A DNA stretch of 64,000 nt from a virus. Below the pieces are notes generated by a model. It was not told where the DNA came from, searched no databases, and saw only the letters and a program-made list of their open reading frames with translations. The stretch spans positions 51,004 through 115,003 of the IMG/VR virus record IMGVR_UViG_3300028198_000256; one strand, 5' to 3'. Shown here piece after piece: positions 47 through 50,680 of this stretch (position 1 is its first letter; each line of letters opens with the position of its first letter). The position numbers were made by a program, and so were the translations under genes.

Positions 47-946
47 TTATGTTAAGAAAAAATCATCCAATACAGTTGACGTTGAAGACGTTATATTATT
101 ATGTTTAATATTATCAACTCCCATTTCAAAATCAGGTCTATTTTTATCCGATTCATTAATAATAATAACATCTTTAAGATCTGTTACATCTTTCCATTGT
201 AGTTTATCTTTTTTTGGATAATTCTTAGTCCAATTCATAGACGATAATTTAAGTAATATTTTAGCAGAACGTTTATCTAATGGATATATGTATCTAAACA
301 TATAACCCTTATATCTACGTATACCACGTTCTTTCATAAATCCTGTGGTCAACCAACTCAACTTATCTTTTTTAAACATATCATCATTACGTCTTTCCCA
401 CTCTACATTTTCTTTACATAAATCTTTACTACTTCTTGGATGTAATTTCTCACCATTTTCCATCATATAAACATCTGTCCAATACCGTTCACCAAAATAA
501 AAATTAGATGCTTGATAAACATATCCACATTTACCCATAATTCCATCTGCCATAGTATACAAATATTTACAATTAGTATTCCGTTTAATCCACCTAATAC
601 TTGATGATATCATGCAAGACCCATATGACTTAGTTCCATTTAATTTAGGTAACAAACACATTTTACCAATTTCAAAATAATAATTAGTCAAAGAATGTTT
701 ATATCCAGAACTCCGAACATTTGGAACATTCAATTCAAACAATTCATCCTTCAACGTTGGTAATATTTTAGCAATAGTATGTCTTGGTCGTGTACCCCAC
801 CCCAATGTCATAACTCCTGATAATTCATCCTTTAAAAAAAACCCAAGATAATGTGTAGTTAGTGCCGGCATAACTGGTGAATAATGATACTTTTCTATAA
901 ACATAACAGCTGTTATTTTATCAATTTTTTTTACTTCAAACTTCAT
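47..946 (-). CDS. mom: Mom-family (GNAT-fold) DNA adenine hypermodification enzyme
   Basis: Motifs colinear with phage Mu Mom: HYS, LGFF..DELSGVMTLG, YFEIGKMCL, ADGIMGKCGYVYQASNF, FRYIYPL, YPK; C-terminal VLDDFF. Confidence 0.8.
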   Translation of the reverse strand: MKFEVKKIDKITAVMFIEKYHYSPVMPALTTHYLGFFLKDELSGVMTLGWGTRPRHTIAKILPTLKDELFELNVPNVRSSGYKHSLTNYYFEIGKMCLLPKLNGTKSYGSCMISSSIRWIKRNTNCKYLYTMADGIMGKCGYVYQASNFYFGERYWTDVYMMENGEKLHPRSSKDLCKENVEWERRNDDMFKKDKLSWLTTGFMKERGIRRYKGYMFRYIYPLDKRSAKILLKLSSMNWTKNYPKKDKLQWKDVTDLKDVIIINESDKNRPDFEMGVDNIKHNNITSSTSTVLDDFFLT

Positions 947-2045
947 AATACTCCATAAGTTCTAATGATTCAGCAACCATTAAATTAGTGATTCTACCAT
1001 TATGTGTATATATACCATTTGTGAAATTAGGATCCACGTTATCAAGACCCATATCAGCCAAAACAGTTATATATGGTAATGTCGCCTTAGTAAGTATGTT
1101 AGTAGCACTTTTAGGATATGCACCGGGCATATTAGACACACAATAATGAATAACCCCATGGTGCATAAATACAGGGTTCTGATGACTCCTAATATGTGAC
1201 GTTTCAATGCAACCACCTTGGTCAATAGACACATCAACCACCACCGAACCGTTCCTCATACTTTTTACCATATCTTCAGTAACAACAATAGGAGATTTCT
1301 TTCCTGGTATTGAAACTGCACCAATAACTAAATCAGCATCTTTAACAGCAGGCTCCAAATTCCATGAAGTGGAACACTTATATTCAATAGAAGTATCCAT
1401 ATGACCTCTACTCAAATACTCCCAACGATAATCGGTTTCCAACCCTAAAATAATAACATTAGCACCCATCCCATTTGCCATCTCAGCCGCATGTCTACCA
1501 ACAACACCATCACCAACAACTACCACATTACCAGAATTAACACCATTAATTTTTCCTAGTTGTACACCAGACCCATCAAAAAACATTGACTTATCTGTAT
1601 ACTGAAGATAATAACTACCAATAGTAACCGCCATATTACCAGCAATAGCAGACATAGGTGACAACAACGGTAAATTACCAAAATTATCTGTTATTGATTC
1701 ATATGCTATGGCAGTAGTATTGGTGGATAATAATTTAAGTGTCAGTTCTTTATCTACACCCGCAAGATGAAGATAAGTAAATAATATTTGCCCATTAAAA
1801 TATTTGTATTCTTCCACTTGAGGTTCTTTAACTTTAACCACAAGATCCGAATCCCATGCATAAAAGTCGTGGCATATTGTCGCACCGGATGATATGTAAT
1901 CATCATCCGAATAACCAGAACCAACCCCAGCTTCAAATGTTACACATACAGAGTGACCTCTATCAACCAATTCACGCACACCATTTGGGGTAATTGCTAC
2001 CCTATGTTCGTTTTCCTTTATTTCTTTGATTAATCCAATTTTCAT
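936..2045 (-). CDS. ald: Alanine dehydrogenase
   Basis: MKIGLIKEIKENEHRVAITP, VKVKEP, FTYLHLA, VVVVGDGVVG, DVSIDQGGC, HYCVSNMPGA. Confidence 0.95.
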   Translation of the reverse strand: MKIGLIKEIKENEHRVAITPNGVRELVDRGHSVCVTFEAGVGSGYSDDDYISSGATICHDFYAWDSDLVVKVKEPQVEEYKYFNGQILFTYLHLAGVDKELTLKLLSTNTTAIAYESITDNFGNLPLLSPMSAIAGNMAVTIGSYYLQYTDKSMFFDGSGVQLGKINGVNSGNVVVVGDGVVGRHAAEMANGMGANVIILGLETDYRWEYLSRGHMDTSIEYKCSTSWNLEPAVKDADLVIGAVSIPGKKSPIVVTEDMVKSMRNGSVVVDVSIDQGGCIETSHIRSHQNPVFMHHGVIHYCVSNMPGAYPKSATNILTKATLPYITVLADMGLDNVDPNFTNGIYTHNGRITNLMVAESLELMEYYEV

Positions 2046-2649
2046 ATTTAGTCCTCACTGATTCAACTTCCATCAATCTAGGAAGAATTTCATTAATAAC
2101 CCCTATATACAATTCAGATTCAGTAGCACGACAAGCATCACCTAACGATTGCACATCATCATTATCTCTAACTAAAACTAAATTCTGTTTCAATATCGGT
2201 CCAGAATCATATTCATCAGTAACAATATGTACAGTAACTCCTGTAACCTTATCATTAGACTCTAAGACTGATTTATATATATCATCACCAAACATATTAC
2301 CATGTTTAGGCAATAATGATGGATGGATGTTTAATATTCTATTTTCATACCCATTCAATACTATATTATTAACATGTTTCCTGTATCCAGACAACACTAC
2401 CAGATCAGTTGCAACTGATTTTAATTTATTAAAAATAGCATTATCTTCGTCATGTAGATTAGTTTTACCAGATATTATAGAAACATTAATACCATTATCA
2501 TGACACCATTGAACTATAGGAGCATCTTTATTATTACATATAACAACACCAACTTCAGCTACAATTCTCCATGAATTAATTGCTCCTATAACATCCCTAG
2601 CAGCAGTACCACCATCTGACGCCAAAAAACTAATAATTGGTGTCTTCAT
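2002..2649 (-). CDS. purN: Phosphoribosylglycinamide formyltransferase
   Basis: ILNIHPSLLP, TGVTVH, EYDSGPI formyltransferase motifs. Confidence 0.88.
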   Translation of the reverse strand: MKTPIISFLASDGGTAARDVIGAINSWRIVAEVGVVICNNKDAPIVQWCHDNGINVSIISGKTNLHDEDNAIFNKLKSVATDLVVLSGYRKHVNNIVLNGYENRILNIHPSLLPKHGNMFGDDIYKSVLESNDKVTGVTVHIVTDEYDSGPILKQNLVLVRDNDDVQSLGDACRATESELYIGVINEILPRLMEVESVRTKYENWINQRNKGKRT

Positions 2650-2653
2650 AATA

Positions 2654-4777
2654 TCACCTCAAATCTTTATCAAAATCATCTACCATAATTGATTCATGTT
2701 CTAAAATTCCATCTAATTCGCCTTTCAGATTAGACTCATATGCCCTTTCTAAAATATTTAATGCATCCTTTGTATTAGATGATGTAAAAGTTTTATCTGT
2801 CAACCTAGACCTTGCATCAAATCCTAATGCAGATTTAATTGAATTAGGAACATTGACCACCGACTTCACCATTCTACTATTCAACTTATCTGATGGACCC
2901 TTATATCTTCTACCAAATGGAAATATCAAACGTCTTAATATAAACCCAATGAACTTTGAAGGATAATTGTCTAAAATGTCCTCAAACGATTTCTGTATAT
3001 TATATAATCCAGACTCAGCACCCCATGTAACATATAATATATCATTCTTCTTATCCATATCATCAGTATCTTCGTAACGTTTTAATACCGCAGATGTCAT
3101 ATACAACTCTGAAAATGCATCTGCAAATCTACCAGTTATTCTTTGTCGTTTCTTAAGATCAGCACCCAACACCGATATACTTATATCAGATAACAATGCA
3201 AAGTTCTTTGATTCCAATTCAATACGTTTATAATACTTACCAATTTCACATGATGCGTCTTTTGGTTTAGATATAAACATACCACCAGTAATATTATGAT
3301 ATAATGACCCAAATATATTACCAATAGTATATTTAAGATGACCCATTAACGCCTTATTAAATGCAATCGCATCACCACATTCAGCAGAAGTTACTTCATC
3401 TTTTATAAATGGATGACACCGTAAAGATCCTTGAGAAAATACAATTAGAGATCTCGTTAATATATTCGCACCCTCAACAGTATTAGCAATAGGTTGTGTT
3501 ATATAATAATTCAATAATAAATTATTAGGACCATCAGATATACCCTTTCCAGCCAAAATGTCCATACCATCAATAATACATTGTCGCATCCTTTCAGTAC
3601 ATTGATATTTCAACATGGCAGAAATAACAGATGGTTTTTCACCATTTACTATTGCAGTAGTAGTGAGATTACACGCAGCCTCTACAACATAACATTGTCC
3701 AATTATCCTAGACAATGGCTCTTCAATACCTTCCATCTTGGAAATTGGAATTTTAAATTGTTTTCTTATCCTAGAATATGCAGTAGTAACTTTTAATGTA
3801 TGTTTAATACCAGCCATAGATAATGATGGTAATGATATTGCCCTACCAGCCGCAAGACACGCCATTAACATTCGCCAACCCTTTCCTACCCCATCAATTC
3901 CACCTATAACATGATTCAATGGTAAAAATACATCTTTACCATAATTTGGTCCATTCATAAATGCTTGTCTAGCAGGATAATGTCTGCGTCCTATACGAAC
4001 ACCCTTAGTATCAGTTGGAACTAATACTAAACTTATACCCTCAACAGGAGGCGAATGCTCAGATTCTTTCAATAACTCATCAGGATCCACAATATGACAC
4101 GCAACACCAAGTAATGTAGATACTGGTCCTAGTGTGATATATCGTTTTTCCCAATTTAATCTAATACCTAATACCTTTTCACCGTCATATTCCCCATATT
4201 CAACAACACCATAATCTTCCATCGCCGCAGCATCTGAACCAGAATATGGTCCTGTTAATGCAAATGCCGGTATATCTTTACCTGATGATAATGTAGGTAA
4301 CCATTTATCTTTTTGTTCTTGTGTGCCAAACTCATAAAGCAATTCACCAGGACCCAAAGAATTTGGAACCATAGTAGTAATTGCTAATGATATACTTCTT
4401 GATGCTAAAATTGATATGATACACGATTGTGCATATGCTGAAAATTCCAAACCACCATATTCTTTCTTGATATTAAGTGCAAAAAAACCATTATCTTTTA
4501 AATAATCCCACACCTCAACTGGTAAATCTTTATGTATAACATTAACTTCCCAATCAGACACCATTTCACAAACAGTATCAACTTCAGAGTTAATGAAATC
4601 ATGTTCTTCTTGTGTTAATTTAGTTTGTTCTGTATTTAATAATATATCCCAGTTTGGTCTACCACCAAATAACTCAGATTCCCACCATACTGTACCGGCA
4701 TCTAAAGCCTCTCTTTCAGTATTTGATATCTTTGGTAATATCTTTTGGAATAATTTCATACCATATTCATTCATCAT
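2654..4777 (-). CDS. fadE: Acyl-CoA dehydrogenase, FadE type, lacking the N-terminal membrane segment
   Basis: ISNTEREALDAGTVWWE, MVPNSLGPGELL, FALTGPYSGSDA, WEKRYITLGP, TVEGANILTRSL. Confidence 0.93.
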   Translation of the reverse strand: MMNEYGMKLFQKILPKISNTEREALDAGTVWWESELFGGRPNWDILLNTEQTKLTQEEHDFINSEVDTVCEMVSDWEVNVIHKDLPVEVWDYLKDNGFFALNIKKEYGGLEFSAYAQSCIISILASRSISLAITTMVPNSLGPGELLYEFGTQEQKDKWLPTLSSGKDIPAFALTGPYSGSDAAAMEDYGVVEYGEYDGEKVLGIRLNWEKRYITLGPVSTLLGVACHIVDPDELLKESEHSPPVEGISLVLVPTDTKGVRIGRRHYPARQAFMNGPNYGKDVFLPLNHVIGGIDGVGKGWRMLMACLAAGRAISLPSLSMAGIKHTLKVTTAYSRIRKQFKIPISKMEGIEEPLSRIIGQCYVVEAACNLTTTAIVNGEKPSVISAMLKYQCTERMRQCIIDGMDILAGKGISDGPNNLLLNYYITQPIANTVEGANILTRSLIVFSQGSLRCHPFIKDEVTSAECGDAIAFNKALMGHLKYTIGNIFGSLYHNITGGMFISKPKDASCEIGKYYKRIELESKNFALLSDISISVLGADLKKRQRITGRFADAFSELYMTSAVLKRYEDTDDMDKKNDILYVTWGAESGLYNIQKSFEDILDNYPSKFIGFILRRLIFPFGRRYKGPSDKLNSRMVKSVVNVPNSIKSALGFDARSRLTDKTFTSSNTKDALNILERAYESNLKGELDGILEHESIMVDDFDKDLR

Positions 4778-5066
4778 ATATCATACCTCTAAAATAAAAT
4801 AAAATCCACCACCCATACTATTATATATAACATTAATGGTATACCAAATGTCAATACAGACATCCAAACCGACTTAGTAACAGATTTACACAACCCATTA
4901 CATTGATAATTAATCTTTTCCCTTATTCTCTCCATCCTTGACTGTACTAATTCTTCCACTTTCTTTATTCTCCGTTTTTTGTTTATTATTAAATATCATA
5001 TCCCAATTATCTCTATATTGTTTATTACTTACTTTAGATTTTATAGAATCTCCTGTTATATCATTC

Positions 5067-5402
5067 TTAGCTACCATTTTCTATTTTTCTGTTTAATTTT
5101 TCTATTTTTCTGTTTAATTTGTCGCGATTCCGTTTAAGAGATTTAATCTCACGTTTTAAGTTTCTCACATCATCCAAATACCGGTTTGCATCATTTATAT
5201 CACCACATTTAGCCTCCATACGATTACCAATGCTCTGTAATTCCTCCAGTAATCCCATAACAATTGAAAAGTTTCGTGTTTTATAACAAGAACGCATTTC
5301 ATCTATCACAGTACAAAAATATCTATTTGCCATAAATTCCTCCTCATCTATCCAAATTTCTTTTTTCATATTAAGCAACCATTCTTGCAAATTCTTGTGC
5401 AA
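5067..5402 (-). CDS. Hypothetical coiled-coil protein
   Basis: ORF co-oriented with neighbours; heptad-like C-terminus. Confidence 0.6.
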   Translation of the reverse strand: MHKNLQEWLLNMKKEIWIDEEEFMANRYFCTVIDEMRSCYKTRNFSIVMGLLEELQSIGNRMEAKCGDINDANRYLDDVRNLKREIKSLKRNRDKLNRKIEKLNRKIENGS

Positions 5403-7551
5403 TCAACTTGTTAGATTTCTTGTTCTTTTGGAACTTTTTAAAATCACGTTTGATTGTATTCATTCTCTTACGGTCTGTTGTAAACAAAGGGTCATCATCA
5501 GCAACTGTTACAAATTCATCATCTTCTGCCTGTAACCGTTTATCATGAACCACAATGTAACGGTCATAAAACTCATTATCCGAATCAATTTTATCATGAA
5601 CAATATATCCCACTTTTGGATTAACCAATTTACGATATGATGTTAAGAAAAAACCAATTACATTATATCGTTTTCGTAATGCATCAAACATCGCCTTTTG
5701 ATATAATTTAGTTCTTGAATAATATGAATAAATACCACCCACGTTCGCCTCAAGTCTACCATAACCTTCAACATCAAAAACTACAACCTTTTGATCACCA
5801 TAACCCAAACTTTTAGTTCTGATATCTTGTGCCTGACCATCAGTCAGGAAAACCACATTCATCTTTTCAGTATTATGTTTCTTAACAAAATCATCCGCAA
5901 GAATTAATGAGTAAGCAGCAGTTTCAATTAATGGTGTTCCACCCATTGAAAACAGTTTCTCTTTCATCCAAGCATTACCACCTGTCAATGTTTCAGAAGA
6001 AAACATAACTCGTTGAGTCATTTTGTTCTGTTTACTCGTTGTCCAACTAGAATCGGCAATTTTAATCATTCCTAATGCATAATTGGCAAGGTCATATTTA
6101 CCATAATCTTCACCTTTACCAAACATGTTTCTTTTGCCATTATCTTTCCATTTTTTACCATTAGTAGTAAATGTATATAATTCATATGGAATACCAACAC
6201 GTTTCGCAAACATAATCAAAATAACAGACTGTTTTACGGTTTCATATAAACGACCCCACATAGAACTAGAGAAATCAACATACATCAATAATCCATGATT
6301 CTTAGCATCAGGAAATGACATGATTGACTTGAAAATATGATCGTCTAACTTATATTGCCACAATTTATCCACATCAATTGAACCACTTGTAGACTGTCTT
6401 GCCTTTCTTGATTCCATTGCAGATTTACGAAGTTCAAATTGTTGAACCATAGCATTTACTGCGGGTTTAACATCACGAATAAACTCTTTATATCTTACAT
6501 TAATGAACTCATCATGATAAATTTGCATAGCGGGTTGATTATTCTTCATTTCTAAGAATTCAGTATAACTTCTCTCCACCTCTTCATCAGTATATAAAAA
6601 CTCATTAACCAATTGTTCCTTTGTGAATTTAAGATATGAAGTACCACTACCCTCATTAATCATCTTATTTTCATTCTTTCTAAATGCATCATCAGTAACA
6701 GAATGATATGGATCTTCACCAGTAGTATCACCAGTATCAGAAAGTCCACCACCAGAAGAAGAAGAAACATTATCTTCTTCAACACTATTATCATCAGTAA
6801 CATTAGCATCAGCATCAGTATCAGAAGAACCAGATTCTAATGAGTCATCACCATCTTCTGAAGATTCAGTATCACCAACATCAGAATTTAAACTTTCAGA
6901 CAATCCAGAAGAATCTTCAGATTCTTCAGATTCTTCTGAATCACCAGAACCATCACTTGATTGTTGCTGCTGTTGCTGTTGTGGTTGCTGCTGTTCATCA
7001 AGAAACTCCATCAACTCACGTGAAACTCTAACTGTATCATCCCAAGTATCAATTTGAAATACTTTAGACATCATAACAGATTCTTTAAATGAAAACTTAA
7101 TATCAATAGTTTTTGATAACTTAGCCTTCAAATTCAATCTATCAAGAAATCCCAAAGTATCAACATCAACATCTTTAATACCAAAGAAATTATCTGCAAC
7201 TAAATGACGATATCCTTTTAGGAAATCATTAATTAATCCAGGATAAAATTCACGAACAAGACGTTCAATACGAACATCTTCAACAATATTTAAAATAGAA
7301 TGTGGTATATCTTCAATATCAGGTAATAACTTATTTATACTTTCATCATGACTGAAAATACTAGGTGTATATAATGCATGACCAACCTCATGTCCAATGA
7401 ACAGAGTGGCAGCATCTTTATATTCTTCTTTCAATAATGGCAATCTAAGAATACGATTAGTAGGGTCAAATGAAGCAGTTCTAAAATTACCCTCAATAAC
7501 TTCTAAATCTTCTCTTGCCATTAATTTGGAAAGTAGTGAAGTGTTTAACAT
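5371..7551 (-). CDS. Metallopeptidase-like (HExxH) plus VWA domain protein, CobT-like family of T4-like phages
   Basis: GHEVGH and NIVEDVRIE; acidic/polyQ linker; MIDAS elements DFSSSM, GGTPL, FLTDG. Confidence 0.8.
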   Translation of the reverse strand: MLNTSLLSKLMAREDLEVIEGNFRTASFDPTNRILRLPLLKEEYKDAATLFIGHEVGHALYTPSIFSHDESINKLLPDIEDIPHSILNIVEDVRIERLVREFYPGLINDFLKGYRHLVADNFFGIKDVDVDTLGFLDRLNLKAKLSKTIDIKFSFKESVMMSKVFQIDTWDDTVRVSRELMEFLDEQQQPQQQQQQQSSDGSGDSEESEESEDSSGLSESLNSDVGDTESSEDGDDSLESGSSDTDADANVTDDNSVEEDNVSSSSGGGLSDTGDTTGEDPYHSVTDDAFRKNENKMINEGSGTSYLKFTKEQLVNEFLYTDEEVERSYTEFLEMKNNQPAMQIYHDEFINVRYKEFIRDVKPAVNAMVQQFELRKSAMESRKARQSTSGSIDVDKLWQYKLDDHIFKSIMSFPDAKNHGLLMYVDFSSSMWGRLYETVKQSVILIMFAKRVGIPYELYTFTTNGKKWKDNGKRNMFGKGEDYGKYDLANYALGMIKIADSSWTTSKQNKMTQRVMFSSETLTGGNAWMKEKLFSMGGTPLIETAAYSLILADDFVKKHNTEKMNVVFLTDGQAQDIRTKSLGYGDQKVVVFDVEGYGRLEANVGGIYSYYSRTKLYQKAMFDALRKRYNVIGFFLTSYRKLVNPKVGYIVHDKIDSDNEFYDRYIVVHDKRLQAEDDEFVTVADDDPLFTTDRKRMNTIKRDFKKFQKNKKSNKLIAQEFARMVA

Positions 7552-7582
7552 TTAATTTACCTCTTTATTAACTTATATAGAG

Positions 7583-7611
7583 AGTATATCATACTTTAAC
7601 CGATATGTCAA
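7583..7611 (-). promoter_or_regulatory. Sigma70-type early promoter
   Basis: TTGACA-17 nt-TATACT with extended -10 TG. Confidence 0.8.
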
Positions 7612-7619
7612 GAACTATT

Positions 7620-8495
7620 TTATAAAAATTCATCCAATGTTGATACGTTACTCTTATAATTCATCAATAACAATTCCTTTCTTTTCTTTTGATTCTCCAC
7701 ATATGACGTTAACTGATTATTCATGGTGTATGTGAGATCCCATTCCTCTTGAGTCCATTCACTATACCATTCACGCAGAGTTGGATTGGAATTATATGTA
7801 ATCATACACGTATTACCAGACTTTGATACCTTTTCATAGAATTCTCTATGATTAAATCCTTTATGCATCGAACCATCCTTTCCATATAAAGAATCCTTGA
7901 TATCATATGGCGGATCCAGAAACAAAAATACATTCGGGTCATCATCAATTAATTCAGAATAATCTAGGTTCGTGATTTTCCAATTCTTGATAATCTTTCC
8001 GAATATTGTTAACGATTCTATTACCCTAAAGTTGAAACAATCTCTCATTGCCCATGTTGACATAGTACCAGATTCAGTTAAACCAGAGAAAGACATTCTA
8101 TTCATAGCATACCATCTCCATCCAACCTCAAATGGGTCTGTCTGATCTCCTATCTCCGATTTCATTTCATTGAACAATTCACGACTCTTGTCCACATCAT
8201 CTCCTACTGATTCCTTCTTTTTCTTTAAAATATTGACTAATTGTTCGGTATCACTCTGCAAAGTAATCCAGAAATAATATAGATTCTGATACTTATCATT
8301 TATATGAATGGGAATATTTGGGAATAAACGTGCAAATGCCAAGGAAGGAGACCCCCCACCACCGAAAGCATCTCGGTACTGGGTAATCTCCTTTATATTG
8401 GCTGGAAGTTTGGTATCATGAAACAAATACTTCATTGCCTTTGATTTACCACCTGGATACCTTAGTGGTGTTTTATAGTTGTTTAACGACCTCAC
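7620..8495 (-). CDS. dam: DNA adenine methyltransferase (Dam/D12 class)
   Basis: PLRYPGGKS, DAFGGGGS, FLDPPY; ends STLDEFL. Confidence 0.9.
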   Translation of the reverse strand: MRSLNNYKTPLRYPGGKSKAMKYLFHDTKLPANIKEITQYRDAFGGGGSPSLAFARLFPNIPIHINDKYQNLYYFWITLQSDTEQLVNILKKKKESVGDDVDKSRELFNEMKSEIGDQTDPFEVGWRWYAMNRMSFSGLTESGTMSTWAMRDCFNFRVIESLTIFGKIIKNWKITNLDYSELIDDDPNVFLFLDPPYDIKDSLYGKDGSMHKGFNHREFYEKVSKSGNTCMITYNSNPTLREWYSEWTQEEWDLTYTMNNQLTSYVENQKKRKELLLMNYKSNVSTLDEFL

Positions 8496-9592
8496 TATTT
8501 GCTATTTACCTCTTCCAACATCCAATCTTCTAAAATAACAGACTGTTCCTTTGGTAATCCATCCTTCGTTTCAATTGGTGAAATATCTTGATGAAGAAAC
8601 CCCTTAAACACTATAGGTAAATCAAAAACATACTCTTGACCCGTAGTTTTCTCATAAAACTCTTTAGCAAACAACAAAACATGTTTTTTAAAACTTTTTA
8701 ACCACGCCATCCTTTGTCTTTTAAGAACGTCAGATGCCGGCGATGGGTCTTCTATAAACCCTCGGATTTCTATTGGAATATACACACCATCAACTTTAGA
8801 TACCTTCTCATTAACAATTAATGCCATACAATCATGCAATAATGGTTTAAATGTGCCTTGGGGTTTAACATAACCACATTTTCCAGATTCCTGTTCATTA
8901 ACAGATCCCTTATATGGCAACGTCTTTTCCTTACAGAAAGCGTTGGCTGAATCACTATCCCATGTTTTAAGTGTAACATGTCCGCTATCACATGCTCTAT
9001 ACTTTTTAAGTATCAAATTACGATGTTTTGTATCCTTACCAGGAGTCAATTTGATAATAAGATCTTTAATTGCGATTTGTTCTGGGTCTACCAACTTATC
9101 AGCAGTAATAGTGTTTTGCTCAACACACCTCTTAACAGAATTAACTGTATCTTTAATCCTGTTAATTTTCTTTGGATTGCCATTATTTGAATTGTGTTTT
9201 GCAATTTCTCTAAATAATGGAGTTCTATAAACTACCTTATCAAAAGGTAAACAATCCCACTGCGGAATCTTTGCCGCCTCGTAACGGTGAAACCCAGTAG
9301 TACCCTTATTACCATCACGTGAGTCTTCATATTGCAACGGTGGTTCACCATGATCCCAATTTTTAGCTAAAAAAGATTCCCCAATTTCTGATATATTTTC
9401 CTTAATATTTTCTTCAACCTTGTTTTGGTCATTGACATCAAACCTAACTTTGTTTAAGTTCATAACATGTCTTTTCAAAAATTGCACTCCCGGCTCTCCA
9501 TACCATTTTTCCCCATTGGGACCTATGCCATAAATATATTCAGGTGGACACCTTTTTAATGAGTCTTTTAAATCAAAATTTAATTCTAACAT
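8495..9592 (-). CDS. Hypothetical protein with possible ParB/Srx-like domain
   Basis: EPP...GFHRYEAA resembles the ParB GxHR motif; stop overlaps the dam start. Confidence 0.45.
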   Translation of the reverse strand: MLELNFDLKDSLKRCPPEYIYGIGPNGEKWYGEPGVQFLKRHVMNLNKVRFDVNDQNKVEENIKENISEIGESFLAKNWDHGEPPLQYEDSRDGNKGTTGFHRYEAAKIPQWDCLPFDKVVYRTPLFREIAKHNSNNGNPKKINRIKDTVNSVKRCVEQNTITADKLVDPEQIAIKDLIIKLTPGKDTKHRNLILKKYRACDSGHVTLKTWDSDSANAFCKEKTLPYKGSVNEQESGKCGYVKPQGTFKPLLHDCMALIVNEKVSKVDGVYIPIEIRGFIEDPSPASDVLKRQRMAWLKSFKKHVLLFAKEFYEKTTGQEYVFDLPIVFKGFLHQDISPIETKDGLPKEQSVILEDWMLEEVNSK

Positions 9593-9756
9593 TTTCTTTC
9601 CTTCTAATAAAGAGGTCTACTGACCAAATGATAAGGACATCACTGACATCCTTTTAATAAAAAGTATTATCTTTCACTGAAACTTTCACTGAAGATTAAT
9701 ACTAACTTTGTTCTTATTTTTTATAACTCATTGAGAAATAAGAAACTCAATTTAAA

Positions 9757-9831
9757 TGGAGCGGACGGGTCGGAATCAAACCGCCTCTTTCTGTATGGTA
9801 TACAGATATTCTATCATTAAATTACACCCGC
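9757..9831 (-). tRNA. Non-canonical tRNA-Gly-like gene (anticodon ACC, CCA encoded)
   Basis: GCGGGTG-TA-ATTT AATGATA GAAT-A-TCTGT ATACCAT ACAGA-AAGA-GGCGG TTTGATT CCG(A)CC-CGTCCGC-T-CCA; Gly identity elements G1C72, C2G71, G3C70, U73, C35C36. Confidence 0.8.
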
Positions 9832-9860
9832 AATATTATTTTAACTTAGTACTTATAATG

Positions 9861-9889
9861 ATCATAACACATAATGTCGGAATTGTCAA
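9861..9889 (-). promoter_or_regulatory. Sigma70-type early promoter driving the tRNA-Gly-like gene
   Basis: TTGACA-17 nt-TATGAT with extended -10 TG. Confidence 0.75.
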
Positions 9890-10068
9890 GTTTTTAACAC
9901 CGTCACATTTCCCTCAATAACCTTTACTGTGTTTTCTTGTCTCCACGTATATCTGTCATCAAATTTATGTCCACATTTTTTATAATCATCCCACTTCATA
10001 CATAAAATATCCTCTGTCAATTTACCACCACCTTCACCTTCAATTATCGGTTGTATCATCATTCCCAT
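9886..10068 (-). CDS. Hypothetical protein
   Basis: Short ORF with GGTGA upstream. Confidence 0.5.
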   Translation of the reverse strand: MGMMIQPIIEGEGGGKLTEDILCMKWDDYKKCGHKFDDRYTWRQENTVKVIEGNVTVLKT

Positions 10069-10285: not shown

Positions 10286-10327
10286 AAATACTCCTTTTTT
10301 TTATAAAGTTGTATTAGTATTTATACT

Positions 10328-10356
10328 ATAATAACACATTGCGTCAGAATTGTCAA
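10328..10356 (-). promoter_or_regulatory. Sigma70-type early promoter
   Basis: TTGACA-17 nt-TATTAT with extended -10 TG. Confidence 0.75.
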
Positions 10357-10363
10357 GGATTAT

Positions 10364-19684: not shown

Positions 19685-20178
19685 AAGAGGATTTCTGTTG
19701 CCAAGTATCCCCAAACTCCGCATACTTATATACTAAGCTGCAACCGCAAAATTATCATCTGCATTTATTTTTTTGATTTTTACATCTTTCTTGATGAATA
19801 GTCCATATACAATATAGTACATTGTCGAATCTGTTCTCCCCCACAAAAATTGTCTAGTCACAACCCAAAAGTCCTGCAGAACTTCATGAACGCCACTTGC
19901 GGCTAAGGATACCCGGGAGTTTGTTGTCCCGTGTTCACATACGTCCATATATACATTGTAGAACCCATCATCGCTGGTTTGGTGCTAAGTTAAATGAACC
20001 CGTTGGCTCTGGGGGAATTCCCCCTCACCATCTTTCGTACGCTCCATCTATTCTACTAAGTATACCGTGTGTCACACATTCCGTATATATGCATTATACA
20101 TCTACACTAGACAATTTATGTGGAAGAGGTGGGAATCGCACCCACGTCCAACATACATAAAATATACTTCAAACTATT
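19685..20178 (-). ncRNA. ssrA: Circularly permuted (two-piece) tmRNA
   Basis: Acceptor piece GGAC-GTGGG TGCGATT CCCAC-CTCTTCC-A (ends 20121) lies upstream of the 5' strand GGGGGAG-AACAGATTCGAC (starts 19842); G3.U70 pair; helix 2 AATGTAC/GTATGTT; tag (A)ADDNFAVAA* at 19762-19733. Confidence 0.9.
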
Positions 20179-35657: not shown

Positions 35658-37139
35658 TTATAAAAAACTATCCAAATCAGTCACAGGTTCAACCGAATCT
35701 ATTCTTAATGTTGCAATCTCAAAATACTCTTTCTCTCTCTCAATACCAATAAAATCAAATCCTTCATATTTAGCAGCCATACCAGTAGAACCAGAACCCA
35801 TAAATGGGTCTAAAACAGTACCGTCTTTCGGTGTAACCATTCTACATAAGTATTTCATTAACTCTACAGGTTTAACCGTTGGATGTACATTCTTTCGTTC
35901 TGTTACAAATCTTCCAGTAACATCATTATCTATCTTTGATTTATCCATTTCATGTGGATCTCGTCTACCAGACATACTTGATGTCTTTTTGATAGGCATT
36001 CCATCACAACCCTGATTTCTCTCTTTCTTAGACACCTTTGGCGAATAGAAATATCGTGAGGCAGAACCCTCATCACCATATTCTCTACCGGCTGGGGTAC
36101 CAGTTGATTTATCCCGAATACCACCAGATTTTGAACCTTCACCTTTGTATTTACCAGCTTTAGTATCTGGAAATACCCCTTTCACCGCATCAGAACCATC
36201 ATGCATTACATTTGACGGAAATCTACCTCTTGGGTCTGCATCAGCATAATGATTTACTTCCTGTTTCATACCTGAGTTTTCATTAGTAAATACATTATCA
36301 TCGGGTCGAGATTTACGATTAGTTGTTTTCCGTTTTGGAAATACCTCTTTCACAACATCAGAACCATCATGCATTACATTTGATGGGAATCTACCTAACT
36401 CACTTGATCCTGTTTTTTCTCCAGCATATCCACCAACATAAACATCTTTTGCCATCTTGTCGGTTTTCCAAGTTCCTTTACCACCTAATCTTGAATCATC
36501 ACCCTCGGATAATCCCACTCTACAACCATCAATATTAATACCACCAGTTCCATGCTTCAGAACATTTGCGACAATAGTCTTTTCTGATAATGGTTTCCTA
36601 GCCATAACAACAGGTTCGTGTGCTGGTTTGAGTGCGGTTCCCCACCCCTCATATTCTGAATTACCCATGGTTTCTTTATATGAATCATCACTTTTCCAAT
36701 CATCATCATGCATAACTCCGAGTGAACTCATAGGTTTCCCTTTACCGACAACATCTCTTTCATTACCAAGTTTCTTATCAATCTGTTTTCCGATATTCAA
36801 ACTCTTTGGAAATCCAGAACCATATAACCACATAATCTGATCTCGTATCTCAAACCCAGCGTCCTCAATAGCAACTGCCATTCTATGATAGGTTCTAGAA
36901 CCAGAAAATGCAAGTAAATGACCACCCGGTTTCAATAACTTTAGTGCCAATTCCCATGTTTCTTTAGAAAATGCTATACCAGTATCATCCCATTGTTTCC
37001 CCATAAATCCTAACTCATATGGAGGATCCGTAACAATTGAATCAACTTGCACACCATCTTCTATCATCTGTTTCATTCTATCAATACAATCATCACAATA
37101 CAGTATCATCACCACCATCCTTACTGGGGAAAAAATCAT
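35658..37139 (-). CDS. DNA amino-methyltransferase (beta class)
   Basis: TDPPY, HPTVKP, VLDPFMGSGST; ends TDLDSFL. Confidence 0.9.
   Translation of the reverse strand: MIFSPVRMVVMILYCDDCIDRMKQMIEDGVQVDSIVTDPPYELGFMGKQWDDTGIAFSKETWELALKLLKPGGHLLAFSGSRTYHRMAVAIEDAGFEIRDQIMWLYGSGFPKSLNIGKQIDKKLGNERDVVGKGKPMSSLGVMHDDDWKSDDSYKETMGNSEYEGWGTALKPAHEPVVMARKPLSEKTIVANVLKHGTGGINIDGCRVGLSEGDDSRLGGKGTWKTDKMAKDVYVGGYAGEKTGSSELGRFPSNVMHDGSDVVKEVFPKRKTTNRKSRPDDNVFTNENSGMKQEVNHYADADPRGRFPSNVMHDGSDAVKGVFPDTKAGKYKGEGSKSGGIRDKSTGTPAGREYGDEGSASRYFYSPKVSKKERNQGCDGMPIKKTSSMSGRRDPHEMDKSKIDNDVTGRFVTERKNVHPTVKPVELMKYLCRMVTPKDGTVLDPFMGSGSTGMAAKYEGFDFIGIEREKEYFEIATLRIDSVEPVTDLDSFL
36168..36396. repeat. Imperfect ~61-bp direct repeat, period 168 bp, inside the methyltransferase
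   Basis: Two copies encoding GRFPSNVMHDGSD.VK.VFP (36168-36228, 36336-36396). Confidence 0.85.
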
Positions 37140-37825: not shown

Positions 37826-37901
37826 TGGTGGGTCTGGTAGGACTCGAACCTACACTCGGCCGATTATGAGTCGGATGCATTAACCATTATGCTACAGACC
37901 C
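37826..37901 (-). tRNA. tRNA with CAU anticodon (probably Ile2/lysidine type, or elongator Met)
   Basis: GGGTCTG...TCCGA CTCATAA TCGGC...GTAGG TTCGAGT CCTAC CAGACCC A CCA, 76 nt. Confidence 0.92.
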
Positions 37902-45629: not shown

Positions 45630-47393
45630 TTAACCTTCACAACTAACACAACCATCCTGACTAACAAATTCACCCCTTACACCTGTCAACAAATCTTGAC
45701 CAGATGGGGTTTCCGTATAATCCGTCATAGTATTCTGTTCTATCTTTTCCGATAATATTTCAGTACGATTTGATGTTTCTGTTCTTAAATAATATAACGA
45801 CTTATTACCAAATTTCCACGCATTATAATGTACTTCGTGTAAATATTTCTTATCAACTCCTGCGGGGAAAAATACATTCAAACTTTGGGATTGACAAATA
45901 TATTTTGCACGCTGACCACCCAAACGAACAATTGCATTTTGATCTATCTCAATTGCCGTTTTAAATACTTCTTTTTCATGTGACGTTAAGAAATCCAAAT
46001 GTTGAACAGAACCATTATTAGCAATAATAGAATTCCATATATGTTCATTATCTTTATCATAATCAATCAACAATTTCTTAATATATCTATTTTTAATCAA
46101 ATGACTCCCAGCACGTGTTCTATGAACAAATGCATTAGCCTTTATAGGTTCAATAGATGGAGATGTTGAAGCAATACTTGAACTATTTGCGTTAGGGGCA
46201 ACTGCCAACAAATTAGCATTTCTTCTTCCAGTACCAATCATATCAGAACACTCACCATATTGTTTTCCTAATTCCAATGACTGTTCAACTGCCTCGTTTT
46301 TAATATATGAAAATATTTCCTCATTAAGTTCTGCGGCAGATTGACTACCAAAAGGTATAGACTGTTTCATTAATAAATTATGCCAACCCATAGCACCTAT
46401 ACCAATTGACCGTTCCTGACTAGCAGAATATCTAGCCTTACCTATATCACACGGAGCGTGTTCTATAAAATAAGTTAATACATTATCTAAAAAAACAGTT
46501 AAATCTTTCACTAAAGAAGTTCCTTTCCACTCATCATAAGTTTCAAGATTCAATGAACTTAAACAACATACAGCAGTGCGTTCTTCATTAGTAGGTAGAG
46601 TTATTTCACAACAAAGATTAGAACCTCTTGAGAACAATCCTTTATCTTTTTGTGTTTGTGGATATGCATCATTTGCCGTATCAATAAAATATATGTATGG
46701 TTCACCAGTACGATATCGTGTTTCTAATAGAGTTTCCCATAACTCTCTAGCCATAACAGTATCGGTGGGATCACCAGATTTTGGATCAATAAGTTCCCAT
46801 ACTGAATCACTTTCAACTGCATTCATAAAACTATTAGGAACATTAACACCATGATGTAAATTAAGACACTTCCTATTAACATCACCCGTAGGTATTCTCA
46901 AAGACATAAACTCTAAAATATCAGGATGTGATATATCCATATACGCAGCATACGACCCCTTACGAGTGATACCCTGTTTATATGCAGTCATATCAGCATC
47001 CACAGTATGTAAAAATGGTATTGGTCCTGGTGCTATATCTGATACAGAACGAACATCCGACCAATGTCCACCAACACCACCACCCTTAACTGACAACCAC
47101 CTCAATTCAGATGTGTGTTCTATTAAACCCTCTAATGTGTCTGGTACATATCCCAAAAAACATGATATTGGTAACCCACGCACAAGTTCTTCCTTTTCTG
47201 GTGCATTTGACAAAATAGGAGATGAAAACATAAACCAATTCTTGTCAACATATGAATATATTCGTTTTGCCAATTTCTCATCATCAAAACTAAAAGCATC
47301 AGATGTTCGTTTAAATGCATCCTCTGGAGTATCTTCATACTCCCTCATATAATAATCACGTAATAACTTCAACCCCTGTTCACTTATATTCAT
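45630..47393 (-). CDS. nrdA: Ribonucleotide reductase class I alpha subunit (no ATP cone)
   Basis: PISCF, GSNLCCEI, VCCLSS, APNANSS, SLYYLR, C-terminal CVSCEG. Confidence 0.95.
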   Translation of the reverse strand: MNISEQGLKLLRDYYMREYEDTPEDAFKRTSDAFSFDDEKLAKRIYSYVDKNWFMFSSPILSNAPEKEELVRGLPISCFLGYVPDTLEGLIEHTSELRWLSVKGGGVGGHWSDVRSVSDIAPGPIPFLHTVDADMTAYKQGITRKGSYAAYMDISHPDILEFMSLRIPTGDVNRKCLNLHHGVNVPNSFMNAVESDSVWELIDPKSGDPTDTVMARELWETLLETRYRTGEPYIYFIDTANDAYPQTQKDKGLFSRGSNLCCEITLPTNEERTAVCCLSSLNLETYDEWKGTSLVKDLTVFLDNVLTYFIEHAPCDIGKARYSASQERSIGIGAMGWHNLLMKQSIPFGSQSAAELNEEIFSYIKNEAVEQSLELGKQYGECSDMIGTGRRNANLLAVAPNANSSSIASTSPSIEPIKANAFVHRTRAGSHLIKNRYIKKLLIDYDKDNEHIWNSIIANNGSVQHLDFLTSHEKEVFKTAIEIDQNAIVRLGGQRAKYICQSQSLNVFFPAGVDKKYLHEVHYNAWKFGNKSLYYLRTETSNRTEILSEKIEQNTMTDYTETPSGQDLLTGVRGEFVSQDGCVSCEG

Positions 47394-47567
47394 ATATTAT
47401 TCCTGTTTTTGTGTTCCTTTATATTCATTATCCATGGCATTCCATAAAACCTCATCCTTTACTTGATGTTCTGCATTATCATATTCCAAATCCTTTATCT
47501 TATGTTTTAATTCGTCATTCTCTTTTTTTAAAAAGTCAAGTTCGTCTTTGATTCCCATAAATCTCTC

Positions 47568-48587
47568 CTAACATCGTTTCCATTGATTAAGACATGCCTT
47601 CGCCGATAATCCATATTTTACATTATTAGATATAACTTTTTGTAAATCTTCCTCCGTATAACCATTAATGATCATGTCATTAATGTCTTTTTCATTAATC
47701 TCATCAGGCCATATAAGTACACCATATTCGTGTTCTATAACCTTCTCCATTTTCTTTACTATCTGTATATTTCTAGGTTCATTATCATATATAAAAACCA
47801 CATCATCAAACTTCTTAAAAATATCCAAATCACAATCACTTCCAGCCATTGCTATAGAATTATCAACAAACAATGAATCTAATGGTCCTTCTAATACATA
47901 TACTATATTAGTATCATCAACCGTATCCATACCATATATCTTCAATGAATCATCTTTTACTTTTATAGTAATATATCTAATAGAAGAATCACCAATAGAT
48001 CTACCTTGTATAGCAGTTAAATTATATTTATCATCATAAAATGGTATTACTATTCTAGGATCATTTTTAATCAAAGAATATGTATTCTTCGGTAATATAG
48101 AATCCACCATAAGTTTAAAATCATCAGAATAATATAATGACTGTAATTTAGTTATCTTTCTATTCTTTATATACTTCAATGCAGTATGATTTTCATCTAA
48201 TTCAGACAATTTAACCACATTATCATAATTAAAACTTTTTACCTTTTTATAAGAAAAATCCATATTATATTTAACTACAACTTCTTTCTTGATTTTCTTA
48301 TTAGATATCGATTTCCCCTCTTTCCATAAATCCATCACATACTCGTCATATAATGGTTTGTCAACAATTTTAATAAAATTCTTTAAAGTCATCGACGCAC
48401 CACAATTATGACACATATAAAAATAATTATTCTTTTTTAAATATATAAATCCACGTGATTTTACTTTATTCTTTTGCGAATCACCACACAAAGGACACCT
48501 AAAATTATAAAGAGACTCCTTTTTCTTTACAAACATATCAAACTTATAAGACATTCTCATAATATAAGAATTATCTATATAACTCAT
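47568..48587 (-). CDS. 61: DNA primase (T4 gp61)
   Basis: CPLCGDS...CHNCG zinc ribbon, EGPLDS, DNEPRN, KDINDM. Confidence 0.93.
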   Translation of the reverse strand: MSYIDNSYIMRMSYKFDMFVKKKESLYNFRCPLCGDSQKNKVKSRGFIYLKKNNYFYMCHNCGASMTLKNFIKIVDKPLYDEYVMDLWKEGKSISNKKIKKEVVVKYNMDFSYKKVKSFNYDNVVKLSELDENHTALKYIKNRKITKLQSLYYSDDFKLMVDSILPKNTYSLIKNDPRIVIPFYDDKYNLTAIQGRSIGDSSIRYITIKVKDDSLKIYGMDTVDDTNIVYVLEGPLDSLFVDNSIAMAGSDCDLDIFKKFDDVVFIYDNEPRNIQIVKKMEKVIEHEYGVLIWPDEINEKDINDMIINGYTEEDLQKVISNNVKYGLSAKACLNQWKRC

Positions 48588-48615
48588 ATCACCACCTCAC
48601 ATCATACTAAATAAT

Positions 48616-49284
48616 TTATACCTCGTTGTGTCTATATAATATCATCATACTACCATAAGTATCATCCTGAATCACAACATTCTTTTTTGGATTACTTTTA
48701 ATATACTTTCTAACATCCTTAGCCTCTTCAGATGACATATAATTCTTCCATCTCGCATACTTCTTCTTACCTTTCATCAATTTTACATATGTGTTAAATG
48801 TTACAGGATATACTGAAAACCCACCAAATTTAGATGGTGGAGTTTTTCCCAAACCCGCAAAATTACTAATCTCCCCACCCGAACTCATAGGTCCAATAGA
48901 ATTTGCGAATTCCTCAGTTAACAATAACTCATCAACCTTCTTAAATTCTATAGAATTTACATATTCAATTAAACATAATTTCAATATACGTGATGTGTTT
49001 TCATCAAACTCACTTTCTCTAATTAACGCAAATGCCGCAACATAAGAAGCAATTTGACTTTTACCACCAGGTACTTTACCAAGTAATCGTTTTAAATTAA
49101 AAATCAACCTATGCAATAAAGTATAAGAATCCTTCTCAGATTTTTTATCTAAATCTTTAGACTTCCTAAGAGCAACACCATTCTTATCAATAATACCATA
49201 TTTAAAAGCATCTTGTTTATGCCAAGGTCTAGTCAATATTCTTAAAAATCTATAAGAAATAAACCCATCTATAACTGCCGTCAT
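48616..49284 (-). CDS. Conserved T4-like phage protein
   Basis: YRFLRIL..PW...DAFKYGIID, LHRLIFNLKR. Confidence 0.7.
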   Translation of the reverse strand: MTAVIDGFISYRFLRILTRPWHKQDAFKYGIIDKNGVALRKSKDLDKKSEKDSYTLLHRLIFNLKRLLGKVPGGKSQIASYVAAFALIRESEFDENTSRILKLCLIEYVNSIEFKKVDELLLTEEFANSIGPMSSGGEISNFAGLGKTPPSKFGGFSVYPVTFNTYVKLMKGKKKYARWKNYMSSEEAKDVRKYIKSNPKKNVVIQDDTYGSMMILYRHNEV

Positions 49285-49673
49285 TACAACTCCCTTAAAA
49301 TTAAAAAAATATCTCTATCAATATCAATTGAAATGATATCTACATCAACAGACCCAATACCATATACCTTGTTAGGTAATCTATCCATAAATAATAAAAA
49401 TGTTTTTAATATATAATAATATTCTACATCAATTTTAAAAAATAATAATCTAGTACAAGATTCAGATTCTAATATATTATATAACACTATTAAATGATTT
49501 AATATCAATCTTTCTTTTAAAATATCTCTAACATGATATCGATAAAATAATCGTTTGATATATTCAAATCGTTTCATATCATCACTAAACTCGTCCATAG
49601 TACAACAACTATAATTCATATACGACTTCATCTGATACATAACTACATTCTTACTTGTCAAAACTTCAAACAT
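49284..49673 (-). CDS. Conserved T4-like phage protein
   Basis: EF.DDMKRFEYIKRL, ERLILNHLI. Confidence 0.7.
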   Translation of the reverse strand: MFEVLTSKNVVMYQMKSYMNYSCCTMDEFSDDMKRFEYIKRLFYRYHVRDILKERLILNHLIVLYNILESESCTRLLFFKIDVEYYYILKTFLLFMDRLPNKVYGIGSVDVDIISIDIDRDIFLILREL

Positions 49674-49688
49674 GATATTAACTAAAAC

Positions 49689-49895
49689 CTACTTATCTGA
49701 TACATTCTTCTTTTTCTTAGCAGATTTGGGTTTCTTAACAACTTTAGGTTTCTCTTCAACAACTTCAACAACTTCATCAACCACTAAACCGCGTCTTGCA
49801 ACCAATAATTCCTTAGTTCTTGGATGTCTCCAACCTTGAGGACTAGCTACCGCATCTTTGGCCCATCTTGGTGGCATTTGTTTTTCTACCGACAT
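49689..49895 (-). CDS. Small basic phage protein
   Basis: PPRWAKDAV..GW.HP.TKELLV; Lys-rich tail. Confidence 0.6.
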   Translation of the reverse strand: MSVEKQMPPRWAKDAVASPQGWRHPRTKELLVARRGLVVDEVVEVVEEKPKVVKKPKSAKKKKNVSDK

Positions 49896-50680
49896 ATCTT
49901 TTCTCCTATTTTATCTAATTCATTTAAGTTTTTTACCTTTGTAGACAATTCCACAAGATAACTATTATATTTATATAATTCCTCTGATATAATAAATTTA
50001 TACAATTCATCCGGAGTCTGTTCAATAACACTATAACTATCTAAACAATCAAAGTACTCAGACAACATCAAACTATCATTTGCAATAAAATCATATATAT
50101 CTTCACTGATTCCCATACCACTACGCACATCATTCATTAATGATTCTCCACCCTTAAATGATGTGGGAAGTCCTTTTTTAAAATTGTCATAATCATTTGC
50201 GGCTGCAGCCAATCGCATTTTTGATGCTGACATCCCAACCACTCCCTCTGCATCTGGATCACGTCTACCAGCAGATTTAACAGTAATAGTATTAAAATTA
50301 TAATACCCATGTCTAGCCTTAACATCATTATACTTTTTCATTAATAATTCGAACTCATTAACCCTATCAGCACCAACCACCATAGTAACGTTTTTATATC
50401 CACCTTTATAAATATGAACTAATATATCAAAAACATTATTTATATTTTTATCAGTCATTATATTTGAAGAATGTTTTGGAAACATCCGTTTCACATATTT
50501 CAACTTGTCAGAAAAGGTTAATGGGTTTTTCTTAGAATCATGACTCTTTGATAAATACATTCTATATTCGCCAGTAGACACAGAAGATAATGCATCTAAT
50601 AATTTACCATGACCTGTTGTTGGTGGATTCAATCTACCAAATGAAAAAGTAATTTCTTTATCCATTATCTCTATCCCCAC
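49886..50680 (-). CDS. Cytidylyltransferase-like (HxGH nucleotidyltransferase) protein
   Basis: FGRLNPPTTGH, VVGADR, SAGRRDPD, MSASKMR. Confidence 0.8.
   Translation of the reverse strand: MGIEIMDKEITFSFGRLNPPTTGHGKLLDALSSVSTGEYRMYLSKSHDSKKNPLTFSDKLKYVKRMFPKHSSNIMTDKNINNVFDILVHIYKGGYKNVTMVVGADRVNEFELLMKKYNDVKARHGYYNFNTITVKSAGRRDPDAEGVVGMSASKMRLAAAANDYDNFKKGLPTSFKGGESLMNDVRSGMGISEDIYDFIANDSLMLSEYFDCLDSYSVIEQTPDELYKFIISEELYKYNSYLVELSTKVKNLNELDKIGEKICR

Follow-up and report, generated by a model that had tools for sequence, protein, structure and literature searches.

A Mom-family gene, a tRNA-Gly-like RNA and a ParB/Srx-fold protein in a phage genome: a candidate adenine-hypermodification kit with its own glycine donor

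The stretch of viral DNA considered here, referred to throughout as the window, comprises the final 64 kilobases (kb) of the 115-kb IMG/VR virus record IMGVR_UViG_3300028198_000256 (64,000 nucleotides (nt), positions 51,004 to 115,003 of the record). The minus strand carries all of its genes, and about 32% of its bases are G or C. Three elements of the window are the subject of this work: a gene for a Mom-family GNAT protein of 299 amino acids (aa) at positions 47-946, an RNA resembling a glycine transfer RNA (tRNA) at 9757-9831, and, between them, an open reading frame of 365 codons (ORF365) at 8495-9592, which is preceded by a structured leader. The tRNA-like element, the leader and ORF365 follow a promoter of their own, and the stop codon of ORF365 overlaps the start of a gene for a D12-class N6-adenine DNA methyltransferase (7620-8495).

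The Mom gene, the tRNA-like element and ORF365

The product of 47-946 matches the Pfam family PF25680 (“Mom”) with E=7e-46 and 156.9 bits, against a cut-off of 27.1, over profile positions 2-202 of 202, so that the clear Mom homologue which the initial annotation had placed here is confirmed. In an alignment with the Mom protein of phage Mu (reference sequence taken from NC_000929) it is about 30% identical, and the Mu residues H58, Y59, S124, D149 and Y159 are conserved, while W48 and W181 are not. A phmmer search of the window protein against the PDB gives no match, and neither it nor ORF365 is matched in PADLOC or NCBIfam. The Mom gene, whose ATG overlaps the end of AlaDH, has no promoter of its own; it is the last gene of a run headed by a near-consensus promoter found by promoter search (TTGACA-17-TATACT with TG, 7583-7611, minus strand). 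The gene that opens this run (5371-7551, minus strand) encodes a 726-aa protein that matches no Pfam family and matches phrog_459 (“peptidase”) at 2e-131.

The tRNA-like element (9757-9831, minus strand) aligns to the Rfam tRNA model (RF00005) with a marginal score of 29.9 bits against a gathering threshold of 29 (E=5e-4 per 1 kb, 1.4e-5 per 115-kb record), and ARAGORN makes no call for it. The identity set recognized by bacterial glycyl-tRNA synthetase (GlyRS) consists of G1-C72, C2-G71, G3-C70, U73, C35 and C36, and this set is present in full: the acceptor stem GCGGGUG/CGUCCGC supplies the three pairs in the cmscan alignment, and the element also has U73, an encoded CCA end and the anticodon ACC. 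The tRNA ancestry, the complete set of GlyRS identity elements and the encoded CCA that had been claimed for this gene are therefore all upheld by the model alignment. A further claim, that the T-stem and the anticodon loop are distorted, holds for the T-stem, whose 3' strand contains an extra bulged A, but not for the size of the anticodon loop, which has the normal 7 nt in the covariance-model alignment. What is odd about the anticodon loop is a Watson-Crick pair at 32-38 together with A34, a base which is hardly known at this position in bacterial tRNAs other than tRNA-Arg(ACG). A32-U38 and U33-A37 are able to pair, and in the minimum-free-energy fold the anticodon forms a closed loop of 3 nt. 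The T-loop is UUUGAUU, in which C56 has become U, and the D-loop is AAUGAUA, in which G18 is present and G19 has become A; the conserved elbow set G18 G19 / U54 U55 C56 is thus altered at both A19 and U56, although an A19-U56 pair could stand in for G19-C56.

About 30 nt upstream of the 5' end of the element lies a sigma-70-type promoter, TTGACA-17-TATGAT with an extended -10 TG (9889-9861, minus strand), which matches 11 of 12 consensus positions and thereby agrees with the strong promoter ascribed to the gene at the outset. It is one of three near-consensus promoters in 12 kb, all of them intergenic, and near-consensus promoters occupy the equivalent position in three of the contigs described below (L028, L031 and L032). 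No exact match to the 3' half of the tRNA-like element or to the leader motif is found in IMG/VR or among GenBank phages.

The leader (9593-9756, minus strand) consists of an AT-rich hairpin, a run of U which makes the arrangement attenuator-like, and a second hairpin. A conserved leader of this structured kind precedes every ORF365 homologue (L028:262-362, L030:74-182, L031:296-399, L032:929-1038), and its second hairpin varies with some compensatory change, amounting to two covarying pairs.

ORF365 itself (minus strand) matches no family in Pfam, PHROG, NCBIfam or PADLOC; the Pfam ParB_N family weakly matches 2 of 52 relatives, with a best E of 5e-4, and does not match ORF365. Its close homologues form 8 clusters, and a profile search adds 83 remoter representatives, every one of which comes from a marine or viral metagenome; in IMG/VR and among GenBank phages no relative from its own subclade was found. 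An AF2 model built from 52 sequences reaches a predicted local distance difference test (pLDDT) score of 89.6, and a model built from 9 sequences was too poor to be used (pLDDT 50). In the former, residues 33-212, comprising an N-domain and a helical region, match the fold of pNOB8 ParB-N (Z=10.2 over 154 residues, root-mean-square deviation 3.1), PadC (9.1), KorB (8.8) and sulfiredoxin (8.1), and Foldseek matches the model to ParB bound to cytidine diphosphate at 4e-6. The family profile reaches E=5e-4 against the PDB, with the “QxR” and “GxxRxxA” boxes of ParB aligned, and G100 and R103 are invariant in the 52 relatives. The C-terminal domain of about 150 residues (213-365) has no clear structural match. 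By its modelled fold and its conserved Gly/Arg box, ORF365 is a ParB/Srx-fold protein. The predicted complex of Mom with ORF365 scored 0.00 in a run without controls, a value that counts neither for nor against binding.

Accessory cassettes and recurrent linkage

Comparison with related genomes shows that both halves of the locus are accessory. A query with the PanD protein retrieved 13 related viral contigs, of which the four closest are 88-99% identical to the window at the nucleotide level. In these four, homology reaches window position 9892 and restarts at 8500, so the promoter, tRNA-like element, leader and ORF365 constitute a single insertion or deletion of 1,394 nt (8498-9891), which is missing from L010, L012, L020 and L022. 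Its borders are exact, reading “…GTGTTAAAA” on one side and “TAGTGAG…” on the other, with 3 nt of microhomology. The D12-class methyltransferase gene (7620-8495, minus strand) is present also in relatives that lack the cassette; its GTG start overlaps the TAG stop of ORF365, and in the relatives without the cassette a small upstream ORF is coupled to it in the same way.

Contigs from RNA libraries add to this picture. One of them fuses 8497 directly to 9892, which implies that forms with and without the cassette coexist in nature. Others, from three studies, span the cassette, and because DNA carry-over is possible they give weak evidence of expression; contigs of this kind do not reveal where a transcript starts or ends, on which strand it lies, or whether transcription truly took place. 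Breaks in such contigs at 9834 and 9892 were not read as transcript ends, because they coincide with repeated promoter sequence and with the cassette junction.

The Mom gene occupies a gene-sized insertion of its own (53-935, defined by blastn synteny and junction sequences), which is missing from the relatives G002 and G003, 97-99% identical to the window. In G001 the same slot is occupied by a gene for a 381-aa N6/N4-methyltransferase-like protein with a PPY motif (L023:11350-12495), so the position after AlaDH appears to carry alternative DNA-modification cargo. Both insertions are missing from G001, G002, G003 and G006, and both are present in G000, the record that holds the window, and in the metagenome contig L026, the latter repeating the layout of the window, Mom included.

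A family of intergenic repeats of 80-110 nt, 80-94% alike, occurs upstream of the window (G000:C1, about 46,300-50,800), within it at 10313-10362 and 9846-9896, and in the relatives G001 and G003. Compared with the promoter region at about 10356, that of the tRNA cassette shows 82-86% likeness, and the repeats look like repeated early-promoter elements at which genes are gained and lost.

Proteins of the ORF365 subclade are encoded at eight metagenome loci, and the five ORF365 lineages are 53-70% identical in pairwise comparison. The order of genes around them recurs with variations. In L032 a Mom homologue (53% identity) is followed by a TTGACA/TATAAT promoter, a 72-nt tRNA-Gly-like element with the anticodon UCC, the leader and an ORF365 homologue. 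L028 and L029 have the order Mom, promoter, leader and ORF365 homologue, without a tRNA. L030 has a tRNA-Gly-like element (UCC), the leader and an ORF365 homologue, and in L031, a T4-like contig, a canonical tRNA-Gly(UCC) lies 15 nt downstream of the ORF365 homologue. All four of the tRNAs found beside ORF365 homologues are thus glycine tRNAs.

More distant ParB-like genes, detected with the profile of the wider family, lie directly upstream of Mom in L001/L002 and L009, and the L040/L050 operon has the order PolB, Mom, methyltransferase-like, GNAT, ParB-like and UvsX. Other members adjoin genes for C5 and S-adenosylmethionine methyltransferases or for PP-loop amidotransferase-like, DruA-like or glycosyltransferase-like proteins. 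By these neighbourhoods the ParB-like family is a general companion of phage DNA-modification genes, repeatedly together with Mom; the ParB/Srx-fold gene, to judge from gene order, physically links the tRNA with Mom and is a more general companion of Mom than the tRNA is.

Two of these neighbourhoods merit description in their own right. The tight operon at L040:5452-9020, between PolB and UvsX, contains Mom, a 426-aa methyltransferase-like protein, a 144-aa GNAT-like protein and the ParB-like protein, and L049:6239-9005 is an operon of the same type without Mom; together they may represent a second kind of GNAT-based DNA-modification module. At L001:8678-12132 the order is PolB, a 397-aa ParB-like protein, Mom, a small ORF and a TET-associated glycosyltransferase (PF20691), this stretch being a DNA-modification island of another marine T4-like phage.

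In an alignment of the four tRNA-Gly elements that lie beside ORF365 homologues (those of the window, L030, L031 and L032), pairing amounts to 95-100% in the acceptor, anticodon and T helices, where 10 pairs are altered on both sides, and to just 62% in the D helix. None of 500 shuffles reaches the observed pairing, and slid controls pair at 38-49%. Pairs 1-72, 2-71 and 3-70 are invariant, as are U33, C35, C36, A37, U73 and CCA. Variation is seen at base 34 (U or A), in the 32-38 pair (A-U, G-C, A-U, U-A) and in the D-arm. This is the pattern that would be expected if glycylation and the acceptor end were under selection and decoding were not. The scores of the four against general tRNA models spread over a wide range, from 59 bits for L031 through 29.9 for the window to 18.9 for L030, which has the T-loop UGC and no normal D-arm, and L032 is undetected.

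A possible glycine-donor role and the alternatives to it

The reading that best accommodates these observations is that the window encodes a three-part kit for adenine hypermodification of the phage DNA, which would be split over two neighbouring transcription units with each half on an accessory cassette. A host-type promoter would drive a tRNA-Gly-derived RNA which retains the marks needed by GlyRS and is altered in features that EF-Tu and the ribosome would use, namely the bulged T-stem, the changed elbow, the pinched anticodon loop and A34. We infer that the host GlyRS would charge this RNA with glycine and that the Mom-family GNAT would move the glycine from the 3' end of the RNA to the N6 position of adenine in double-stranded DNA, in the manner of Mu Mom, which takes it from host Gly-tRNAGly. 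The co-transcribed ParB/Srx-fold protein would be a nucleoside-triphosphate-binding, DNA-associated helper of the modification enzymes. The likely unit is thus Mom, the private tRNA-Gly-like RNA and the ParB/Srx-fold protein, and the probability that the RNA has a functional glycine-donor role is put at roughly 0.55. As a predicted function, a private tRNA is plausible and has comparative support. That the RNA is charged, that it is kept out of translation and that Mom uses it are proposals, as is the part given to the ParB-like protein; the components themselves, their cassette nature, their recurrent linkage and the pattern of selection on the RNA were observed directly.

A more ambitious version of this proposal is a distinctly doubtful one. 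It would have the three parts form an obligate machine, in which the ParB-like protein uses nucleotide to load Mom along DNA or to process N6-glycyl-adenine, and in which the clade of Mom proteins with R111K and R151I makes a base other than N6-carbamoylmethyl-dA and depends on its own non-decoding tRNA.

Several observations weigh against a glycine-donor role for the RNA. Ordinary host tRNAGly is sufficient for Mu Mom, so Mom does not need a private donor. The window protein and every aligned marine homologue have K in place of R111 of Mu Mom and I in place of R151; both residues are reported to be needed by Mu Mom, in which R111K and R151A are impaired (PMC13219725), so that the co-substrate of the window Mom is an extrapolation. 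The Mom gene and the tRNA cassette are 8.5 kb apart in the window, and L031 has no Mom in the 8.8 kb downstream of its ORF365 homologue. All four tRNA elements are probably derived from a single ancestral cassette, and their shared glycine identity therefore counts as approximately one event. The joint presence and absence of the two insertions in close relatives supports a link between them in a suggestive way only, because the genomes are few and related and are not independent lineages. On codon grounds a decoding role is possible, because the ACC anticodon pairs with GGU, which makes up 476 of the 749 glycine codons (64%) in 23 long ORFs of the phage. No tRNA-Gly-like element is found near the other marine Mom genes (L001-L009, L040 and phage Melnitz; about eight further lineages) by ARAGORN, by Rfam or by a dedicated covariance model (R1) with its filters off. 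Finally, at E<=1e-20 the searched database contains 812 Mom clusters, and the ORF365 subclade accounts for 8; given these numbers and the lack of such RNAs near other Mom genes, the tRNA would be an optional extra for Mom, and the majority of the 812 clusters are evidently without a tRNA of this kind.

The same searches, with model R1 also run unfiltered, find no further tRNA-Gly-like element near 32 ParB-like loci of the wider family, and ARAGORN and Rfam agree. The match of model R1 near the Mom gene of phage Melnitz was rejected, being a tRNA-Trp and not a tRNA-Gly.

The initial annotation had proposed that the tRNA-Gly serves Mom and that the two should co-occur in related phages. Co-occurrence is seen in the adjacency of L032 and in the shared presence and absence among close relatives, but not near other marine Mom genes. 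The dedication of the tRNA to Mom gains comparative support from L032, from the retention of the identity nucleotides and from the drift of decoding and elbow features, although the proposal had missed the ParB/Srx-fold gene.

Of the alternatives, the one with the best claim, which we nevertheless consider unlikely, is that the stretch from the promoter through the tRNA-like element to ORF365 is a mobile cassette complete in itself (a “moron”) and unrelated to Mom, in which ORF365 may be a helper of the coupled Dam-type methyltransferase, the tRNA-like element is a hitch-hiking remnant that acts at most as a processing or stabilizing signal for the ORF365 message, and the linkage to Mom arises from shared modification islands. 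The clean 1,394-nt indel with its microhomology and its own promoter, and the overlap of the ORF365 stop with the methyltransferase start, are all in keeping with such a cassette, as is the finding that 30 of the 32 wider ParB-like loci have no Mom within 8 kb and adjoin other modification genes, and that the tRNA precedes ORF365 in three lineages and follows it in one. A processing signal does not, however, need C35, C36 and U73 to be invariant while base 34 changes. It is also left unexplained by a cassette unrelated to Mom that the adjacent tRNAs all specify glycine, the sole amino acid Mom is known to use, that Mom directly adjoins in two divergent lineages, and that a comparable trio occurs in unrelated Dehalococcoides elements.

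It is improbable that the element is an ordinary, if odd-looking, translation tRNA which boosts the reading of the main glycine codon, GGU. Beyond the codon usage given above, such a role would suit the strong promoter and the encoded CCA, and tRNA-Gly genes are common in T4-like phages, the L031 copy being canonical. But the window element escapes ARAGORN and scores at the Rfam threshold, it has a bulged T-stem, it has lost the conserved GG of the D-loop and C56, its 32-38 position is Watson-Crick paired, and it carries the rare A34. The counterpart in L030 lacks a normal D-arm, that in L032 goes undetected by Rfam, the anticodon alternates between UCC and ACC among relatives, and close relatives of the phage manage without the gene.

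Very improbable is a decoy or spare tRNA-Gly that shields the phage from host defences directed at tRNAGly, for example GNAT toxins which acetylate Gly-tRNAGly. The cassette is accessory and strain-variable with an early-type promoter, and GNAT toxins specific for Gly-tRNAGly do exist (TacT, discussed in PMC13219725), but no link to a known defence or counter-defence family was found, PADLOC being blank for both ORF365 and Mom, and the adjacency to Mom and to the ParB-like gene would be left unexplained. That the element is a decaying tRNA pseudogene without function, as its low general tRNA-model scores and degenerate D-arm might suggest, is scarcely tenable, since three helices are kept by compensatory changes while the neighbouring protein has diverged to 53-70% identity, and the identity nucleotides, CCA and promoter are retained.

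The phage and comparison with known systems

Genes for PolB, a gp41-like helicase, a gp46-like SMC protein and RNR identify the source of the window as a marine T4-like myophage, and one rich in auxiliary metabolic genes. A permuted (two-piece) transfer-messenger RNA (tmRNA) gene of alphaproteobacterial type at 19733-20178 (minus strand; 89.9 bits against a threshold of 47) suggests an alphaproteobacterial host, and its tRNA-like domain is the third weak tRNA match in the genome. The sole canonical tRNA of the phage is a tRNA-Met (CAU) at 37826-37901 (minus strand, 72 bits), and a second DNA methyltransferase (N6_N4_Mtase, 3.6e-34) is encoded at 35658-37139 (minus strand).

Metabolic genes are unusually numerous for a phage (936-4777, 10364-18886 and 20463-27100, minus strand). 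They include AlaDH, a formyltransferase, an acyl-CoA dehydrogenase, a FadB-like enoyl-CoA hydratase/3-hydroxyacyl-CoA dehydrogenase, a thiolase, PanD, DHODH, a pyrophosphatase, an FTR1-like permease, PRPP synthetase, a TPP enzyme, a class-3 lipase and DnaK, and together they look like a near-complete beta-oxidation set. The AlaDH, formyltransferase, acyl-CoA dehydrogenase and PanD genes, which lie between the two cassettes, were rejected as parts of a modification pathway because relatives without the Mom and tRNA cassettes also have them.

The closest functional precedent is Mu Mom, which transfers glycine from Gly-tRNAGly to the N6 of adenine in double-stranded DNA, as the initial annotation had stated, and which accepts each of the three E. 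coli isoacceptors (Silva et al. 2026, PMC13219725); because all three serve, Mom probably reads the acceptor end. The window protein belongs to the same family and keeps the residues of the GNAT core, but differs in the R111K and R151I changes, in the loss of W48 and W181 and in the absence of a com gene. Mu uses host tRNAGly and has neither a tRNA nor a ParB-like gene of its own, while the window phage has both in addition to Mom. The use of charged tRNAGly by Mom was shown only in 2023-2026 and has been described as the scavenging of a host resource, and PMC13219725, which counts more than 8,000 Mom-bearing contigs in IMG/VR and GOV2, makes no mention of a phage tRNA, of ParB or of gene neighbourhoods. 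A literature search found no paper that links Mom, a tRNA-Gly-like part and a ParB-like part. If the reading favoured here is correct, the element would be the first case of a tRNA dedicated to DNA modification.

A second precedent, also named correctly in the initial annotation, is the non-proteogenic tRNAGly of staphylococci, which binds EF-Tu weakly and serves as donor for FmhB, FemA and FemB (PMC7826273). There, too, glycylated paralogues feed a non-ribosomal transferase, and the T-loop UUC is changed to UGC or UGU, of which UGC is found in L030. The staphylococcal RNAs are, however, cellular, well-formed cloverleaves whose acceptor is a peptidoglycan precursor, while the window element is viral, has the T-loop sequence UUU and a bulged T-stem, and would have DNA as its acceptor; a virus with its own stripped-down glycine carrier would be the viral counterpart of these cell-wall tRNAs.

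ORF365 resembles the ParB/Noc/KorB CTPases and sulfiredoxin/SerK (PF02195) in the fold of residues 33-212 and in the “QxR” and “GxxRxxA” boxes. It differs from them in reading GFHR instead of GERR, in the lack of a Pfam match, in its unmatched C-terminal 150 residues and in the lack of a partition context. A helper role for it would provide a function for a ParB/Srx-like family that is widespread but has no name and that occurs in the DNA-modification clusters of marine phages.

The nearest parallel in gene content comes from the ssrA islands of Dehalococcoides: 16 integration modules of these islands, and likewise a deep-sea fosmid, combine a ParBc protein and a Mom homologue with a conserved 76-bp tRNA-Gly-like locus, a trio for which no function was proposed (McMurdie et al. 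2011, PMC3146451). The same three kinds of part are present in the window, but in Dehalococcoides the first 150 bp of mom contain the tRNA-like sequence, the ParBc protein has about 210 aa and the element is an integrative island, while in the window the tRNA-like element is free-standing, has its own promoter and lies 8.5 kb from Mom in a lytic T4-like phage. Rfam and model R1 detect no tRNA-like sequence inside or touching the Mom gene of the window or its marine homologues. Should the RNA indeed act as a glycine donor, a function would also be available for the “pseudo-tRNA” in the Dehalococcoides mom genes, and the small size and defined parts of the phage cassette make the idea directly testable.

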